Part shown: positions 1 to 7,921 of the stretch, piece after piece
How positions within the stretch are numbered: the first letter of the stretch is position 1
How the letters are laid out: each line of letters opens with the position of its first letter
Virus genome (UHGV): UHGV-0217885
From: a virus
Strand: one strand, 5' to 3'
Length of the DNA stretch: 14,221 bases
Program-made: the position numbers and the translations under genes
The notes under the pieces: generated by a model
The model's database searches: none
Seen by the model: the letters and a program-made list of their open reading frames with translations, nothing else
Told to the model about the DNA's origin: nothing

Positions 1-123
1 AATACAATCTCCGTTGACCGAAGGAGATCAGTGAAGGTAATTTAAAAACGGTTCTGTGAAAGTGACACGAACCGATCTCCATCGATGTTACTCACCGATC
101 TCCTTCACGGTAATACGCAGTCG

Positions 124-154
124 TTATCAAACACCTGTTAAACCACATTAGAAT
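124..154 (+). promoter_or_regulatory. Weak candidate sigma70-type promoter upstream of the small ORF
   Basis: TTATCA at 124..129 and TAGAAT at 149..154, but the spacer is about 19 bp, which is longer than optimal. Position is appropriate for the ORF at 181..282. Judged by eye only. Confidence 0.2.
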
Positions 155-180
155 GCACAAATAAAAGGATCTATATCAAT

Positions 181-282
181 ATGTTATCTCTCGTTTATGA
201 AAATCGGTGGACGACGATTTTTCTGCTGATTTTTGCCAGCATGTGCCTCAATAGTGTTATTGGCGCATTACACGCCCAGTAA
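181..282 (+). CDS. Small hydrophobic protein, 33 aa (MLSLVYENRWTTIFLLIFASMCLNSVIGALHAQ), predicted single transmembrane helix
   Basis: ATG at 181 and TAA at 280..282. AAGGA at 165..169 lies about 11 nt upstream of the ATG. An intrinsic terminator follows about 20 nt downstream. Too short to appear in the supplied ORF track; translated manually. Confidence 0.3.
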   Translation: MLSLVYENRWTTIFLLIFASMCLNSVIGALHAQ

Positions 283-301
283 TCGCGACAAAACCAGCCC
301 C

Positions 302-329
302 AAACCGGCACCGTGAATGCCGGTTTTTT
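302..329 (+). terminator. Rho-independent terminator (GC-rich hairpin followed by a T-run)
   Basis: Left arm AAACCGGCA (302..310), loop CCGTGAA (311..317), right arm TGCCGGTTT (318..326), T-run 324..329. Confidence 0.55.
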
Positions 330-488
330 ATGCCATTTTTCCGCGATTTCCCCGTTTTTAGCCGTGCATGCAACAGGTGCATGCTTTTGCATTCGCAGGG
401 GTTGCCCGTTCTGACCGTGCGCCGCCAGAGCTGGCGCGGATCCCGAGTGTTCATGCAACTGCATTAAAACCGCCCCGTAAAGCGGGCA

Positions 489-507
489 GGCGTGGCGGGG
501 AAAGCAT
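489..507. other. cos: cos site (cosN-like 19-nt cohesive-end sequence) of a P2/186-family phage
   Basis: GGCGTGGCGGGGAAAGCAT at 489..507 matches the P2 cohesive end GGCGAGGCGGGGAAAGCAC, as I recall it, at 17 of 19 positions, and the following TGCGCGC is also shared. Orientation relative to the minus-strand portal gene matches the P2 left end. Confidence 0.7.
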
Positions 508-523
508 TGCGCGCAGCACACAC

Positions 524-553
524 TTGCAATTTGATATTTTTGGTGTAAAAAAT
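524..553 (+). promoter_or_regulatory. Weak candidate promoter for the cargo operon
   Basis: TTGCAA at 524..529 followed about 16 to 18 bp later by an A/T-rich -10-like stretch (TAAAAA/AAAAAT, 546..553). Poor match to consensus; position only. Confidence 0.2.
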
Positions 554-615
554 CGGTGTCAATGAGTAGAAGATGAAAAATAATAACCAAAGGTTACTAA
601 ATCAAGGATGTGCCG

Positions 616-1434
616 ATGAAAGTTAGCTATGACGTTGTCATCAAAAGTGGTGATCAAGAAGTTGATATGGAGTATGGCCTTGATACCCTCTCTGGAACGG
701 CTGAGGTGACATGCATACTAGCAGAGGCAATACTCAGAAAAAAAATTATTAAGCGCCGCACTCATGTTAACCCTGCGCGAGCGGTTCTCAAACAAAGCTT
801 TAAAAGTTCTTATGGTCAAAACTTCGACTTGATTGTTAATGAGCCGGAATTAGCTGCCGAATTAAAAAAAATGACCCGTTCTGTGTTCTCGGAAGTCATG
901 GGGTATTTTATTTCTGAATCTCTATATCTGGAAACTAAGGAGCTATCTCCAAAAGCTGCAGGAATTATTGAGGAGCTTGAGGAAATTGAAGATGAACTTA
1001 TTGATCGTATCAGACAACCTTTGGTAAGGATGCATAGGATAAATCTTCAAAAAAACTTTGATGTTGAACTTAACTATAAAAAACCTGCTGGAAAACAAAG
1101 AATAGCAAAGTTAGACACAATGACTGCTACAAACTTGACACAATCAAAAATAAAGCCCGGTCAAGTTAATATTAACGCAGTTATTACTCGATTTAATGCG
1201 AGAACTGGAAATGGTAGGTTAGTTATCGAAGGTGAAGATGATACAGTAGCCTTTGGTTTTTACATGCCTTTAAAGGCTATACCCGCCGCTCAAAAAAGAT
1301 TGGTCTCATTAAATTTACACAATAATAATGGCAGGCAAGATAACTACACATATCTAAAACTTACTGTTAGCAAAGTTGTAGTAAAAAGTGGTGATGTGGT
1401 GAAATATCTAATCCGTATGGTTGAAACTGTATGA
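616..1434 (+). CDS. Hypothetical cargo protein, 272 aa, no transmembrane segment, family not recognised; candidate sensor or partner of the downstream membrane protein
   Basis: ORF-track entry 610..1434 begins at a GTG. The ATG at 616 is preferred because AAGGA at 604..608 sits 7 nt upstream. AT-rich, unlike the phage structural genes. Stop overlaps the next start (ATGA at 1431..1434). Confidence 0.8.
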   Translation: MKVSYDVVIKSGDQEVDMEYGLDTLSGTAEVTCILAEAILRKKIIKRRTHVNPARAVLKQSFKSSYGQNFDLIVNEPELAAELKKMTRSVFSEVMGYFISESLYLETKELSPKAAGIIEELEEIEDELIDRIRQPLVRMHRINLQKNFDVELNYKKPAGKQRIAKLDTMTATNLTQSKIKPGQVNINAVITRFNARTGNGRLVIEGEDDTVAFGFYMPLKAIPAAQKRLVSLNLHNNNGRQDNYTYLKLTVSKVVVKSGDVVKYLIRMVETV

Positions 1435-2156
1435 GAAAGGTGTTGCTGTCTTCGGCTGGCGTGATTGTAGCTGTGTGCGCCTTGTATTACTTCAACTTCG
1501 GAGTAAACGGACATTTATCCAGCAAGACTGATGTTTGGGCGCAGTTTGGTGATTATTTGGGTGGTGTCGTCAACCCTATACTTTCATTTATTACAATTTA
1601 CCTCCTTATAAATTCAATAAAACTTCAAAGGGAGGCTAATTCCAGCCTGATCGATGAAGTAAAAAGGCAAGAATCTTTAGAAGAGTATAAAAAATTTGAA
1701 GTGAGATTTTTCCATTTGGTTGAATGTCAGGATTCTAACTTTGAAAGGTTTTGTGTTCAAGTTGGTGATATTGATGGACAAACTGACGGGGTGGTCGAAG
1801 AATTTACAAGTGGTGCAGCCGTAACTTATCTTGAAGATAATATTGTAATTTTAGTTAAAGCCAAGGTAAAAAAAGAGGTAATAACAAAGTGGTTAAGTGA
1901 AGTGGATGCTAATGATTGCATTTTTTCAGTGGTGCGTCGCTTTTATTTGATTGTGAAGTTGATAGATAATTGCGGGGTTGAACGGGAAGATTATTATGAA
2001 ACATTAGTTAACTTAACTGACATAAAAATAATATCTTTAGTTGCAATGGCTTGTACATACTACGAGTGGGATATCGTAAAGTATATCCATGACAGTAAAA
2101 TACTTGAACGAGATGGAGTTAAAGAGTTTGTTTCGCAAATATCCACTCACGATTGA
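1431..2156 (+). CDS. Hypothetical membrane protein, 241 aa, two N-terminal transmembrane helices plus a soluble C-terminal domain of about 175 aa; candidate effector
   Basis: Hydrophobic segments VLLSSAGVIVAVCALYYFNF and LGGVVNPILSFITIYLLINSI near the N-terminus. AT-rich. Start overlaps the upstream stop, implying translational coupling. Converges on the portal gene. Confidence 0.8.
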   Translation: MRKVLLSSAGVIVAVCALYYFNFGVNGHLSSKTDVWAQFGDYLGGVVNPILSFITIYLLINSIKLQREANSSLIDEVKRQESLEEYKKFEVRFFHLVECQDSNFERFCVQVGDIDGQTDGVVEEFTSGAAVTYLEDNIVILVKAKVKKEVITKWLSEVDANDCIFSVVRRFYLIVKLIDNCGVEREDYYETLVNLTDIKIISLVAMACTYYEWDIVKYIHDSKILERDGVKEFVSQISTHD

Positions 2157-2157
2157 G

Positions 2158-2176
2158 AGCCGCCATGCTGGCGGCT
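2158..2176. terminator. Palindromic hairpin between the convergent cargo operon and portal gene; possible bidirectional terminator
   Basis: AGCCGCCA (2158..2165), loop TGC, TGGCGGCT (2169..2176). No clear U-tract on either strand, so terminator function is uncertain. Confidence 0.3.
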
Positions 2177-2186
2177 AGAGTGGTGA

Positions 2187-3233
2187 TTATTCCGGATTAT
2201 CGAGGGTGTACTCTTTGAACCTGATGACCTCCATGCCGAGCCAGTCGTTTACCTCCCTGAACCTGTCCTGTAGCGGCGACAGCTCATTGCGCACAAATAC
2301 CTTTGCCACCTTCTCAACGTCACCGAGTGAACCGATATTCTCGGGCTTGCCGCCCATGAGCTGGAACGGTACGCGGTGCGCGTCCATCAGGTCGGCGGCG
2401 CTGGCTTTCTTAATGTTGAAAAAGTCATCCTTTGTGGCGACCTCGCTCAGTGGCACGATTTTGATGCCGTCCGGTTTTCCGCCGGGGGCGTAGAAAAACA
2501 GGTTCTTAAAGTTGCCGAGTCCCTTCGAGTTACGCATCGCCTCGCGCAGCGATTCGACGTCGGTCGCACTTTGCGCCGGGTCAGTCACATACATGATGTA
2601 GCCTGCGTGCGCGCCGTTCTGATAATACTTGCGGCGGAACAGCGTCGCGGATTCATTCAGCCAAGCGGAATTAAGCGCGCTGAGATATTCCGGCAGACCG
2701 TAAATCTCCTGATTAATGTCGGGCTCCAGCAGGTGAAACACGGTATCAGGCGCGAACTCGTGCGGCTGGGTGAAGTTTTCCACAAACCAGAAAATCGAAT
2801 CGTCGACTCCGCGTCGGGTGTATTTGGCTGGCGAGGCCAGCAGTTTGATTAACTGGCCGGTGACGCTGTGGCGCTGCTCAAGAAAGGCGTTACCGAACAC
2901 CAGATAATCGAGCGCAAAGCGGCTGAAATCCTGACGGGATAACAACGGGTGCGGAATGTAGGTGCTCGCGAGCACGTTACGCTTAACATAAATTGGCGAG
3001 CTGTGATGCACGGCAGAGCGCAGGCTCTTTGCCAGCCCTGAGAAGCTGACCGGCGGCTCGTACCATTTGCCGTTACTGATGCATTCGACGTAATCCAGAA
3101 TGTCGCGCTTATCGAGTACCGGCACCGGCTCGCCGAAGGTGAACGCTGTCGTTTTTGGCGGTGCGCTGGCGGTCAGTTGTTGTGGTTTGCTGGCCTTTTG
3201 TGCGTTGGCTTTACGGGATTTTTGTTTACCCAT
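2187..3233 (-). CDS. Q: Portal protein (P2 gpQ family), 348 aa
   Basis: Length and sequence resemble P2 gpQ (about 344 aa) as recalled. Lies immediately downstream of P on the minus strand, as in P2. Confidence 0.93.
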   Translation of the reverse strand: MGKQKSRKANAQKASKPQQLTASAPPKTTAFTFGEPVPVLDKRDILDYVECISNGKWYEPPVSFSGLAKSLRSAVHHSSPIYVKRNVLASTYIPHPLLSRQDFSRFALDYLVFGNAFLEQRHSVTGQLIKLLASPAKYTRRGVDDSIFWFVENFTQPHEFAPDTVFHLLEPDINQEIYGLPEYLSALNSAWLNESATLFRRKYYQNGAHAGYIMYVTDPAQSATDVESLREAMRNSKGLGNFKNLFFYAPGGKPDGIKIVPLSEVATKDDFFNIKKASAADLMDAHRVPFQLMGGKPENIGSLGDVEKVAKVFVRNELSPLQDRFREVNDWLGMEVIRFKEYTLDNPE

Positions 3234-3234
3234 T

Positions 3235-5004
3235 TTAGTTGAACTCCAGAATAGATTTAGGCTGCATGCCGCTACCGGCAGAAAGCGGTTCGTTTAACAG
3301 GGCGTGCATGGTCGCCCATGCGATATCGGCGTGGCTGGCTTCCTCGGTGCGGCTGGCCTCATAGGTGGCGCTGCGCCCGCTGCTAGTCATGGTTTTGCGG
3401 ATGGACATAAACGACTGCGTGACGTCGGTTGCTCCGGCGTCGTACTCCAGACAGCCACGGCGAATGGTGTCTTTCGCCTTGAGTACCATTGCGGTTTTCA
3501 TTTCAGGTGTGTAACGGATGCCGCGTGCCGCCGGGTAAAATGAGCGCACCAGCTGGAACACGCCGAGACCGAGGCCGGTTGCGTCAATGCCGATGTATTC
3601 AACGTTGTATTTCTCGGTCAGCTTGCGGATGCCCTCTGCCTGTGCTGCAAAATCCATGCCCTTCCACTGGTGGCGCTCCAGCATGCGGAACTTGCCACCA
3701 GAGACCACCGGCGGCGCGAGCACGACGCACCCGGCACTGTCGCCGGTGTGTGACGGGTCGTAGCCAATCCAGACAGGACGAGAGCCGAACGGATGGTCGG
3801 CGAACGGGGCAAAGTCCTCCCATTCCTCCATCACATCGACCATGCAGCGCTGCAGCTCCTCGAACGGGAATACCGACGCTTTATCGTCGACAAACTCGCA
3901 CATAAACAGGTTCTTAAAGTCCTCATCACTGTTTTCGCGTTTGAGCTGGTCGAGGTCGAACAGGGTGCAGCCACCCGCAAGGGCGTCCTCAATGGTGACA
4001 ATCTGCCGCCACTGGCCATCGTCGCAGAGCTGGCCACCGGCGAGCGCGCTGTGACTGATGTCGATTTCGATGCGGTCGGCAATCCGGCTGCGCCCCTTGT
4101 TGAACAGCTCGCCAGACCAGAAGGGGTAAGCGCCGTGCGCCAGCGTGGAAGGTGTCGAAAAATAGGTCGAGCGCAGGTGCTTTTGCGAGGCCATGCCCGA
4201 GGCGACTTTGCGCAGTTTCTGAAAATTCGGGATCCAGAATATTTCATCGACATACAGATCGCCGTTATGGCTCTGCGCGGTGTTGGAATTGGTACCGAGA
4301 AAAATCAGTTTTGCGCCGTTGTTACCGATGACAATCGGGTCGCCAGTCAGGTCAACGTCGACCAGTCGCGCAAACTGGATGATGTATTCGCGGAACACGT
4401 AAGCCTGCGTTTTACTGGCTGATAAAAATATCTGGTTATGGCCGGTTTTGAGTGCGCGCAGCAGTGCCTCGCGGGAGAAATAGAATGTCGCGCCAATCTG
4501 GCGGGATTTGAGAATGTCACGAATACGGTGCTCCAGTCCTGCGCGGTACCACTGCAACTGGTACTCGAAAGACTGGTCGAAAAATAATTCCTCTAGTTTA
4601 TCGATAGACTCGTCGCTGAAAAAATTCTTTTTCGGCTTTTTGCGCTCCCCTTTGTTGCGGTTGGCGACGTTGGGGTTAAGGTCGGCTTCGTTGCCGGTCT
4701 GGCTGTAGCGGTTGACTCGCGCCAACCGTTCAATCTGCCGTCCGAGCAGGTCAATCTCTTTGAAATCACCCCCTGTCTTTTGCGGCTTGGCGATGAGCTG
4801 AATCAGCCTAGCCTCAAGGCTGCTTTCAACGCGGGAAATCGGCGCGATGCCGTCCCAGCCGTCGCGCTGCTTCCAGCTCTGCACGGTCGGGCGCTTGACC
4901 TGCAGCATTTCGGCAATCTGTGGCACGGAAAAACCCTGCCAGTAAAGCAGCGATGCCTGCCGTCGCGGGTCATGCAACAAGGTTGTATCTGTGGAAATGG
5001 TCAT
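3235..5004 (-). CDS. P: Terminase large (ATPase) subunit (P2 gpP family), 589 aa
   Basis: N-terminus MTISTDTTLLHDPRRQASLLYWQGFSVPQIAEMLQ closely matches recalled P2 gpP (about 590 aa). Divergent from O across a 165-bp intergenic region. Confidence 0.95.
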   Translation of the reverse strand: MTISTDTTLLHDPRRQASLLYWQGFSVPQIAEMLQVKRPTVQSWKQRDGWDGIAPISRVESSLEARLIQLIAKPQKTGGDFKEIDLLGRQIERLARVNRYSQTGNEADLNPNVANRNKGERKKPKKNFFSDESIDKLEELFFDQSFEYQLQWYRAGLEHRIRDILKSRQIGATFYFSREALLRALKTGHNQIFLSASKTQAYVFREYIIQFARLVDVDLTGDPIVIGNNGAKLIFLGTNSNTAQSHNGDLYVDEIFWIPNFQKLRKVASGMASQKHLRSTYFSTPSTLAHGAYPFWSGELFNKGRSRIADRIEIDISHSALAGGQLCDDGQWRQIVTIEDALAGGCTLFDLDQLKRENSDEDFKNLFMCEFVDDKASVFPFEELQRCMVDVMEEWEDFAPFADHPFGSRPVWIGYDPSHTGDSAGCVVLAPPVVSGGKFRMLERHQWKGMDFAAQAEGIRKLTEKYNVEYIGIDATGLGLGVFQLVRSFYPAARGIRYTPEMKTAMVLKAKDTIRRGCLEYDAGATDVTQSFMSIRKTMTSSGRSATYEASRTEEASHADIAWATMHALLNEPLSAGSGMQPKSILEFN

Positions 5005-7171: not shown

Positions 7172-7921
7172 ATGACGAGCCCCGCACAGCGTCACATGAT
7201 GCGGGTCTCGGCCTCTCAAGCCGCGCAGCGGGAGCAAGCCCCGCTGCGCCATGCAACCGCCTATGAGCAGATGCTGGTTAAGCTGGCCGATGACCGCCGC
7301 ACGTTAAAAAACATCCGTTCAAACGAACGTAAAGCCGAGAAAAAGCGCGAGCTGCTGCCGTTCTATGCGCCGTGGGTCGCCGGTGTGCTGGCTGATGGCC
7401 GTGGTGCGCAGGATGACATTGTCATGACCGTCATGCTGTGGCGTCTCGATGCCGGTGATATCGCTGGCGCGCTGGAAATTGCCCCGTACGCGCTGAAATA
7501 CGGCCTCACCTCTGACCACCACCGCACAACACCTTACATGCTGGTTGAGGAAGTGGCGCTTGCTGCACAGCGCCTGCGCGATGCCGGTGAGTCTGTCGAC
7601 CTTTCCTGGCTGCAGACCACTATCGACCTGACCGACGGCGCTGACGTTCCCGATATGGTGCGCGCCCGTCTGCATAAGGTGACAGGCCTGACCCTGCGTG
7701 ATGCCGGTATGAATGCAGAGGCGCTGGCGCAGTTTCAGCGCGCGATGCAGCTCGACCGCAATGCCGGTGTGCGCAAGGAGATTGAGCGACTGGAACGGGC
7801 ATTGAAGCCAAAGCCAGAGGCCGCGCCCCGTAAAACGACTAAACCGCGCACGCGCAAACCTGCCAACAAACCGGCGGCAAAGCGCGGGCGTCCACCAAAG
7901 GCGGTAAAAACCGCCGGTTAA
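7172..7921 (+). CDS. M: Terminase small (endonuclease) subunit (P2 gpM family), 249 aa
   Basis: Position after N, length close to P2 gpM (247 aa), basic Lys/Arg/Pro-rich C-terminal tail. Confidence 0.9.
   Translation: MTSPAQRHMMRVSASQAAQREQAPLRHATAYEQMLVKLADDRRTLKNIRSNERKAEKKRELLPFYAPWVAGVLADGRGAQDDIVMTVMLWRLDAGDIAGALEIAPYALKYGLTSDHHRTTPYMLVEEVALAAQRLRDAGESVDLSWLQTTIDLTDGADVPDMVRARLHKVTGLTLRDAGMNAEALAQFQRAMQLDRNAGVRKEIERLERALKPKPEAAPRKTTKPRTRKPANKPAAKRGRPPKAVKTAG

Follow-up and report, generated by a model that had tools for sequence, protein, structure and literature searches.

Is the short sequence at positions 489–507 of this prophage a genuine cohesive-end (cos) site, and if it is, how can genes that look foreign to the phage lie almost against it? 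The window—the whole 14,221-nucleotide stretch of DNA analysed here, from virus genome UHGV-0217885—had been given a sequence-only reading in which a cos site of the P2/186 type was placed beside a small 'cargo' operon. The questions that follow are what the site is, how far it extends, what has been inserted next to it, and how unusual the arrangement is.

The 19-mer GGCGTGGCGGGGAAAGCAT occurs once in the window, on the + strand at 489–507, with the heptamer TGCGCGC directly after it (508–514); in 200 dinucleotide-preserving shuffles no match to it arose (0/200), even with three mismatches permitted. It is identical, 19/19, to nucleotides 1–19 of phage 186 (U32222), which are annotated 'cos; cohesive end; top strand cut at 5' end and bottom strand cut at 3' end'. 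The equivalent nucleotides 1–19 of P2 (AF063097), annotated cosL, are GGCGAGGCGGGGAAAGCAC, and the mismatches to the window are positions 5 and 19, exactly as the sequence-only reading had it. The cohesive end of the window is 17/19 identical to P2 and to P4, and matches the family pattern GGCG(A/T)GGCGGGGAAAGCA(C/T). When window 300–620 is compared by BLAST with phage records, the match to 186 runs to base 30624, where that linear record ends, and this base lies opposite window 488. Erwinia phage EtG and Salmonella phage SEN1 have records that terminate at the same aligned point, which places the predicted top-strand cut at 488/489. On sequence grounds, window 489–507 is the exact 186 allele of the P2/186-family cos (cosN), and the type first assigned to it is borne out by alignment with P2, 186 and P4, in which the family blocks are common to all. 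The prophage that harbours it is a 186-like (Peduoviridae) E. coli prophage.

The cohesive end lies within a larger site. When the window is aligned with 186, P2 and the satellite P4, the two ends of each of these three being joined, two shared blocks appear, one from -126 to -95 and the other from -37 to +26. The distal block, ~95–126 bp left of the cut, is TGCAT-rich (GGTGCATG...TTTGCAT). The proximal one comprises a contiguous stretch, (CATGCAAC)TGCATTAAAACCGCCCCGTAAAGCGGGC, directly left of the cohesive end, then the cohesive end, and then (T/C)GCGCGC. Beyond the heptamer that ends at +26 the window, 186, P2 and P4 have no similarity in this alignment. In phage 186 the 189 bp left of the cut are 84.5% identical to the window, and the cohesive end and TGCGCGC are the same.

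The same limits emerge from a wider sample, consisting of 80 prophage loci from species-representative genomes, gathered with the portal protein as query; 79 of the 80 fetched loci have one cos-like 19-mer downstream of the portal gene. When 84 loci are anchored on the cohesive end, information content runs at 1.3–2.0 bits per position from -36 to +26, and reaches 1.8–2.0 bits in the heptamer (+20 to +26); every position past +26 carries 0.9 bits or less. TGCATTAAAACCGCCCCGTAAAGCGGGC, cosN and TGCGCGC are near-invariant from -36 to +26. A gapped alignment of 86 sequences, expressed in window coordinates, finds conservation at 364–371, 376–384 and 386–393, moderate conservation at 423–440 and strong conservation at 452–514, and from 515 on conservation collapses.

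Judged in this way, the complete conserved cos region is window ~363–514, all on the + strand, and it can be read from left to right as follows. The distal block, at 363–394, consists of GTGCATGC, GGTGCATGC and TTTGCATT repeats that are conserved in 70–99% of the 86 cos regions and are present also in 186, P2 and P4; these would be candidate terminase-binding repeats. TGCAT/ATGCA sites number 6 between 355 and 470, where 0.25 would be expected from their density in the window as a whole. An inverted repeat, GCGCCGCCAGAGCTGGCGCGG, follows at 423–443; its columns are moderately conserved (60–80%), and it is found in 186 and partly in P4, but not in P2. The core side of the site, 452–488 (CATGCAACTGCATTAAAACCGCCCCGTAAAGCGGGCA), would form the right end of the virion DNA; it stops at the top-strand nick site, 488/489, is near-invariant in 84–86 loci, and in alignment matches the right-hand ends of 186, P2 and P4. 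Then come cosN itself (489–507), identical to that of phage 186, and the heptamer (508–514), the final conserved cos element by both the bits profile and BLAST, which the left junction of the cargo adjoins. A ~55-bp conserved core in P2 and P4 cos is credited to Ziermann & Calendar (1990) in passages of PMC9594776, PMC5694545 and PMC2231350, and the contiguous conserved part of the window corresponds to it. A terminator scan picked out a hairpin at 470–489, which we rejected as a conserved structure; because the substitutions in 186 do not compensate one another, we treat 470–489 as conserved sequence, instead.

Several small features overlap or flank the left side of this region. Two 'hypothetical proteins' of strain S3 in RefSeq, WP_073507529 and WP_073507270 (window 195–464, - strand, and 368–565, + strand; L004 6076–6345 and 6249–6446), overlap one another and span the non-coding cos, cohesive end included; they are probably spurious gene calls. 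At window 181–281 there is an ORF of 33 codons for a very hydrophobic peptide, MLSLVYENRWTTIFLLIFASMCLNSVIGALHAQ, that could be a small membrane peptide or toxin, and after it, at 303–330, a hairpin and T-run that align with the 186 terminator t95b. Further left, in the accessory region, window 1–119 is the right end of ISEc12, an IS21-family element (the part downstream of istB), ~370 bp upstream of cos; hundreds of copies on plasmids and chromosomes are 99% identical to it. None of the 14 E. coli genomes that match the window from 120 or 301 onward has ISEc12 here, and hence the element is a strain-specific insertion. With the element this close to cos, the present copy of the prophage may be decaying or too long to package.

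The genes around the site are of the kind expected beside a P2-type cos. The portal gene, homologous to P2 Q and 186 W, lies on the - strand at 2187–3233 (Pfam Phage_portal; RefSeq 'phage portal protein'), and on the same strand, at 3235–5004, lies the gene for the large (ATPase) subunit of the terminase, homologous to P2 P, with Pfam domains Terminase_5, Terminase_6N and Terminase_6C; this subunit is part of the enzyme predicted to cut cos. The small, endonuclease subunit, homologous to P2 M, is encoded on the + strand at 7172–7921 (by its counterparts: RefSeq 'terminase endonuclease subunit' in strain S3; PF05944 Phage_term_smal in L096–L098). Full-length ORFs are present for the portal, scaffold and capsid and for both subunits of the terminase. 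In syntenic genomes, replication endonuclease and DinI genes lie upstream of cos. The site thus occupies the position expected of it, between the replication/accessory arm and a convergent portal–terminase operon, with terminase genes of the P2 type present.

What lies between cos and the portal gene is another matter. In BLAST comparisons, homology to 186-like phages and E. coli prophages does not extend past window 514, which is +26 counted from the first cohesive-end base, and with 186 it picks up again at 2158–2176, in the terminator hairpin of the portal operon. Nucleotides 27–167 of 186, a non-coding spacer of 141 bp, have been replaced by window 515–2158, 1,644 bp long. From cos to the portal stop codon there are 1,679 bp in the window, where 186 has 176 bp and P2 has 167 bp. 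The sequence-only reading had put cargo ~100 bp to the right of cosN, and the first cargo ORF does begin 102–108 bp after the cohesive-end sequence, at GTG 610 or ATG 616; the ATG is the more likely start of cargo gene 1, being the RefSeq start and having AAGGA at 604–608. That this interval is normally short holds as well: the 45 cargo-less relatives described below have a median of 172 bp. Since nothing is conserved past +26 among the 86 sequences, the cargo takes over at the point where the conserved cos signal stops, and because all of the family-conserved sequence up to +26 has been retained (~363–514), the replacement fits with recognition by the terminase. The earlier proposal that the insertion must be compatible with such recognition is consistent with these facts.

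The inserted DNA is low in GC, 33–44% versus 50–63% in the phage backbone of the adjacent portal and terminase genes. As marks of foreign origin go, this drop in GC is clear, the candidate promoter is a consensus match only, and the terminator is shared with the portal operon. The leader of the cargo (515–615, + strand) is AT-rich and unrelated to 186, P2 or P4. It contains the AAGGA that would serve as ribosome-binding site and two sigma-70-like consensus matches: TTGCAA-N16-TAAAAA at 524–551, found by eye, and GTGTCA-N17-AATAAT at 556–584, found by scanning. At the right junction, the tW hairpin that terminates the portal/terminase operon (2158–2176; AGCCGCCATGCTGGCGGCT) is the same as nucleotides 167–185 of 186, within the annotated tW at 164–187. 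The cargo abuts this hairpin so closely that, although the hairpin itself is as in 186, the T-run on the portal strand is gone: TTTTTCAT of 186 has become TCTCAATCG in the window (2150–2176). To judge from the letters, this loss may weaken termination of the portal/terminase operon at tW, and antisense read-through into the cargo during lytic growth is then a possible consequence.

How often does this slot carry cargo? The cos-plus-cargo sequence of the window is found in 14 of 5,426 complete E. coli genomes. Eleven of the 14, from different sources, are 100% identical from window 120, and the other three are 98% identical from window 301, differing to the left of it; the strain S3 prophage is 100% identical to window 120–2400. 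Other 186-like E. coli prophages have the same cos and the same portal gene, and different genes in the interval, or none. Depending on the prophage, a filled interval encodes an nSTAND1 NTPase, or else a DUF2188 protein, an AAA ATPase, or two to three hypothetical proteins together. Across 79 loci of different species, the interval between cos and portal is 149–228 bp long (median 172) in 45, and expanded to 380–4,244 bp in the other 34 (43%), in which it is filled by unrelated sets of ORFs, mostly of low GC. Lamassu (LmuA/LmuB, at two loci), Avs5 and Olokun (OloA/OloB) are among the expanded intervals. The prophages that carry Lamassu, Avs5 or Olokun in the cos–portal slot (L050, L086, L062 and L087) belong to Citrobacter, Pantoea, Phytobacter and Mixta. 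Variable genes are thus found between conserved flanks in syntenic prophages, and in that sense the interval is a hotspot. Among the sampled loci, L046, L063 and L055 are assigned to a Vagococcus sp., a Chryseobacterium sp. and a Bacillota MAG, and yet their P2-like prophages are of enterobacterial type, with portal proteins 75–78% identical and a P2- or 186-type cos; they are probably contamination or mis-binning. Phage vB_EcoM-613R3, in which cargo lies between portal and cos, we did not count as evidence for packaging; the record is a 45-kb 'partial genome'.

Arrangements of this kind have precedents. By its title, and as cited in PMC5694545, the study of Dodd & Egan (1996) concerns foreign DNA that has taken the place of the spacer from cos to the terminator in a prophage related to 186; the architecture appears to be the same as that of the window, with a retron there and an uncharacterised two-gene module here. 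According to the passages of Rousset et al. (2022; PMC9122126) that deal with it, P2-like phages have a hotspot beside cos, between gpA and gpQ, with 1,650 gene arrangements in E. coli, and the same A-to-Q hotspot figures in the corresponding passages of Vassallo et al. (2022; PMC9519451). Those passages treat A-to-Q as one region, without separating the two sides of cos, whereas the cargo of the window is on the portal (Q) side. P2 carries its own old and tin on the A side, instead. In the Pseudomonas phage phiCTX the order is like that of the window—cosL (1–21), its own promoter, ctx toxin gene (362–1222, + strand), terminators, and convergent portal gene—but the host, the cargo and the cos allele, with its 21-nt cohesive end, are different. 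The satellite P4 has gop, beta and cII to the right of cos, with variable genes from 247 bp past the cohesive end; again host, cargo and cos allele differ from those of the window, and P4 lacks a portal gene.

The cargo pair itself has been catalogued. Table S5A of PMC9122126 includes WP_073507269 and WP_073507268, under which RefSeq has the two proteins in the strain S3 prophage, and among the supplementary files of that paper the pair appears in Table S5 only, not in Table S2, which holds the systems that were evaluated. Cargo in the cos–portal slot is an ordinary, known type of insertion, then, and the suggestion that its position here is special is not borne out: the arrangement is common (34/79), and it has long been described, from the 1996 report and phiCTX to Rousset et al. 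in 2022.

What of the cargo itself? Gene 1 (616–1434, + strand; WP_073507269) encodes a protein of 272 aa with an N-terminal alpha/beta domain and a C-terminal OB-fold domain; gene 2 (1431–2156, + strand; WP_073507268) encodes one of 241 aa with two N-terminal hydrophobic helices and an all-helical body. The start of gene 2 overlaps the stop of gene 1 (ATGA), making a two-gene operon. Scans of both proteins against Pfam, NCBIfam and PADLOC gave no match above threshold. Against the defence models of PADLOC-DB v2, gene 1 matched nothing and gene 2 matched only ZorB (E 0.002), through residues 28–84 of the hydrophobic N-terminus, so that neither protein matches a known defence family. Both fall into PHROG families of unknown function, and a fold search with gene 2 returned generic helical bundles and nothing else. 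Gene 1 has sub-threshold Pfam matches, in the correct order, to DUF7946 (residues 10–139) and DUF7947 (186–214), and a few of its distant homologues have precomputed matches to PF25678. Literature searches for the protein accessions and for the names DUF7946 and DUF7947 found no paper.

Each cargo protein has ~70–110 homologues, nearly all unnamed, in Enterobacterales and Aeromonas; those of gene 1 occur additionally in Chromobacterium, Pseudomonas and Cupriavidus. The genes travel as a pair, with adjacent locus tags. The slot holds this two-gene module in a Pectobacterium prophage too, where the aa identities are 62% and 45% and gene 1 starts 109 bp from cos; in a commoner 186-like prophage of E. 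coli it is occupied by a divergent allele, with 58% identity in gene 1. The Pseudomonas veronii pair belongs to a chromosomal island, next to a resolvase, and P2-like genes are absent from its neighbourhood; the module is therefore mobile and not phage-bound. That copy (L093–L095, 8001–9555) comprises overlapping ORFs of 274 and 245 aa, after ligA and a Peptidase_Mx-family gene and beside Rap1a and the resolvase. Among records of isolated phages, matches to the cargo DNA are confined to 35–39 bases around cos (window 480–518); the module is therefore in no phage of that collection. This context makes it most likely that the cargo is a self-sufficient module of use to the lysogen; that it acts against phages, through a sensor and a membrane effector, may reasonably be guessed. 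That the OB-fold protein and the two-helix membrane protein make up an anti-phage system not described before is a tentative proposal, which we rate at somewhat less than an even chance.

We put the probability at roughly 0.9 that window 363–514 is a complete 186-type cos and that 515–2158 is an acquired operon that has replaced a non-conserved spacer with the family signals kept. The main competitor accepts the intact site and makes a fossil of it: the prophage would be cryptic, its packaging blocked by the cargo, by the IS insertion, or by both. The ISEc12 end at 1–119, left of cos and missing from the 14 related genomes, gives some substance to this, as does the length that the element adds to a genome already enlarged by ~1.5 kb, and a head-completion gene is disrupted in the related prophage of strain S3. 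Against it, every family-conserved cos element is present, and the portal, terminase, scaffold and capsid ORFs are full-length. The cos-plus-cargo junction recurs, moreover, at 100% identity in 11 complete genomes and 98% in three more; cargo is found here in 43% of the sampled relatives; and phiCTX, a working phage, has the same layout. We think it unlikely that the site is a fossil.

Proximity to cos raises a different thought, that the two cargo genes are phage genes of the lytic cycle, with a role in packaging or injection, for example. Both do fall into PHROG families, and the pair recurs in the slot in E. coli and Pectobacterium prophages. The genes are absent, however, from 186, from P2 and from the 45 sampled prophages whose interval is basal; their GC is 15–20 points below that of the backbone; they are transcribed convergently with the late portal/terminase operon; and in Pseudomonas they form part of a chromosomal island, by a resolvase and away from P2-like genes. 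A lytic role is accordingly very improbable. For the notion that the cos match is coincidental, or a short captured fragment with no part in packaging, we found no supporting point. Identity at 19/19 positions that shuffling never approached, ~150 bp of cos-region homology around the match, and a conserved gene order from the replication-side accessory genes to the portal and terminase genes reduce its likelihood almost to nothing; the alignments refute it, and we reject it.

If, as we believe, the site is a complete cos with an acquired operon at its side, its workings can be sketched by analogy with P2 and 186. The terminase of the prophage (7172–7921 together with 3235–5004) would attach to the conserved repeats and core, on the side of the replication genes (A), and would nick the two strands at staggered points around 489–507 to leave 5' cohesive ends of 19 nt. 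The virion DNA would then start with position 489 as its base 1 and, by the convention for cos sites, would have the cargo at its left end. Window 515–2158 would be a horizontally acquired, low-GC operon of two genes, substituted for ~141 bp of spacer that runs from +27, just past cos, to the terminator. The slot would tolerate cargo, in the form of varied and often anti-phage genes, because the replacement removes nothing that the family conserves.

The slot on the Q side might be more than tolerated. On the premise that the terminase binds the flank of cos that becomes the right end, a placement to which the one-sided conservation points, and that P2-like phages follow lambda in packaging from the terminase-bound end and in ejecting first the end that was packaged last, the end bearing the cargo would be the first to enter the host. 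Were that so, left-end cargo could be expressed in the new host ahead of the remaining genome, a situation reminiscent of the anti-defence genes that conjugative plasmids carry in their leading regions. Literature searches on packaging polarity in P2 and 186, or on the DNA end at the tail side, returned nothing usable. Taken jointly, first entry from a favored slot and an undescribed anti-phage system as the cargo make a long shot, and of the two the undescribed anti-phage system is the more likely.

As a discovery the site has little value: the cos is the textbook 186 cos, and cargo between cos and portal has been known since 1996 and was catalogued at scale in 2022. The two-gene module, conserved and mobile, is a reasonable candidate for defence screening. 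For the family, the coincidence of two boundaries, with cos conservation ending at +26 and cargo starting at +27, offers a reason at the level of sequence for the tolerance of insertions here. And the A-to-Q hotspot of P2-like prophages can be regarded as two slots split by cos, the Q-side one of which is filled in ~43% of the 79 prophages sampled from different species.
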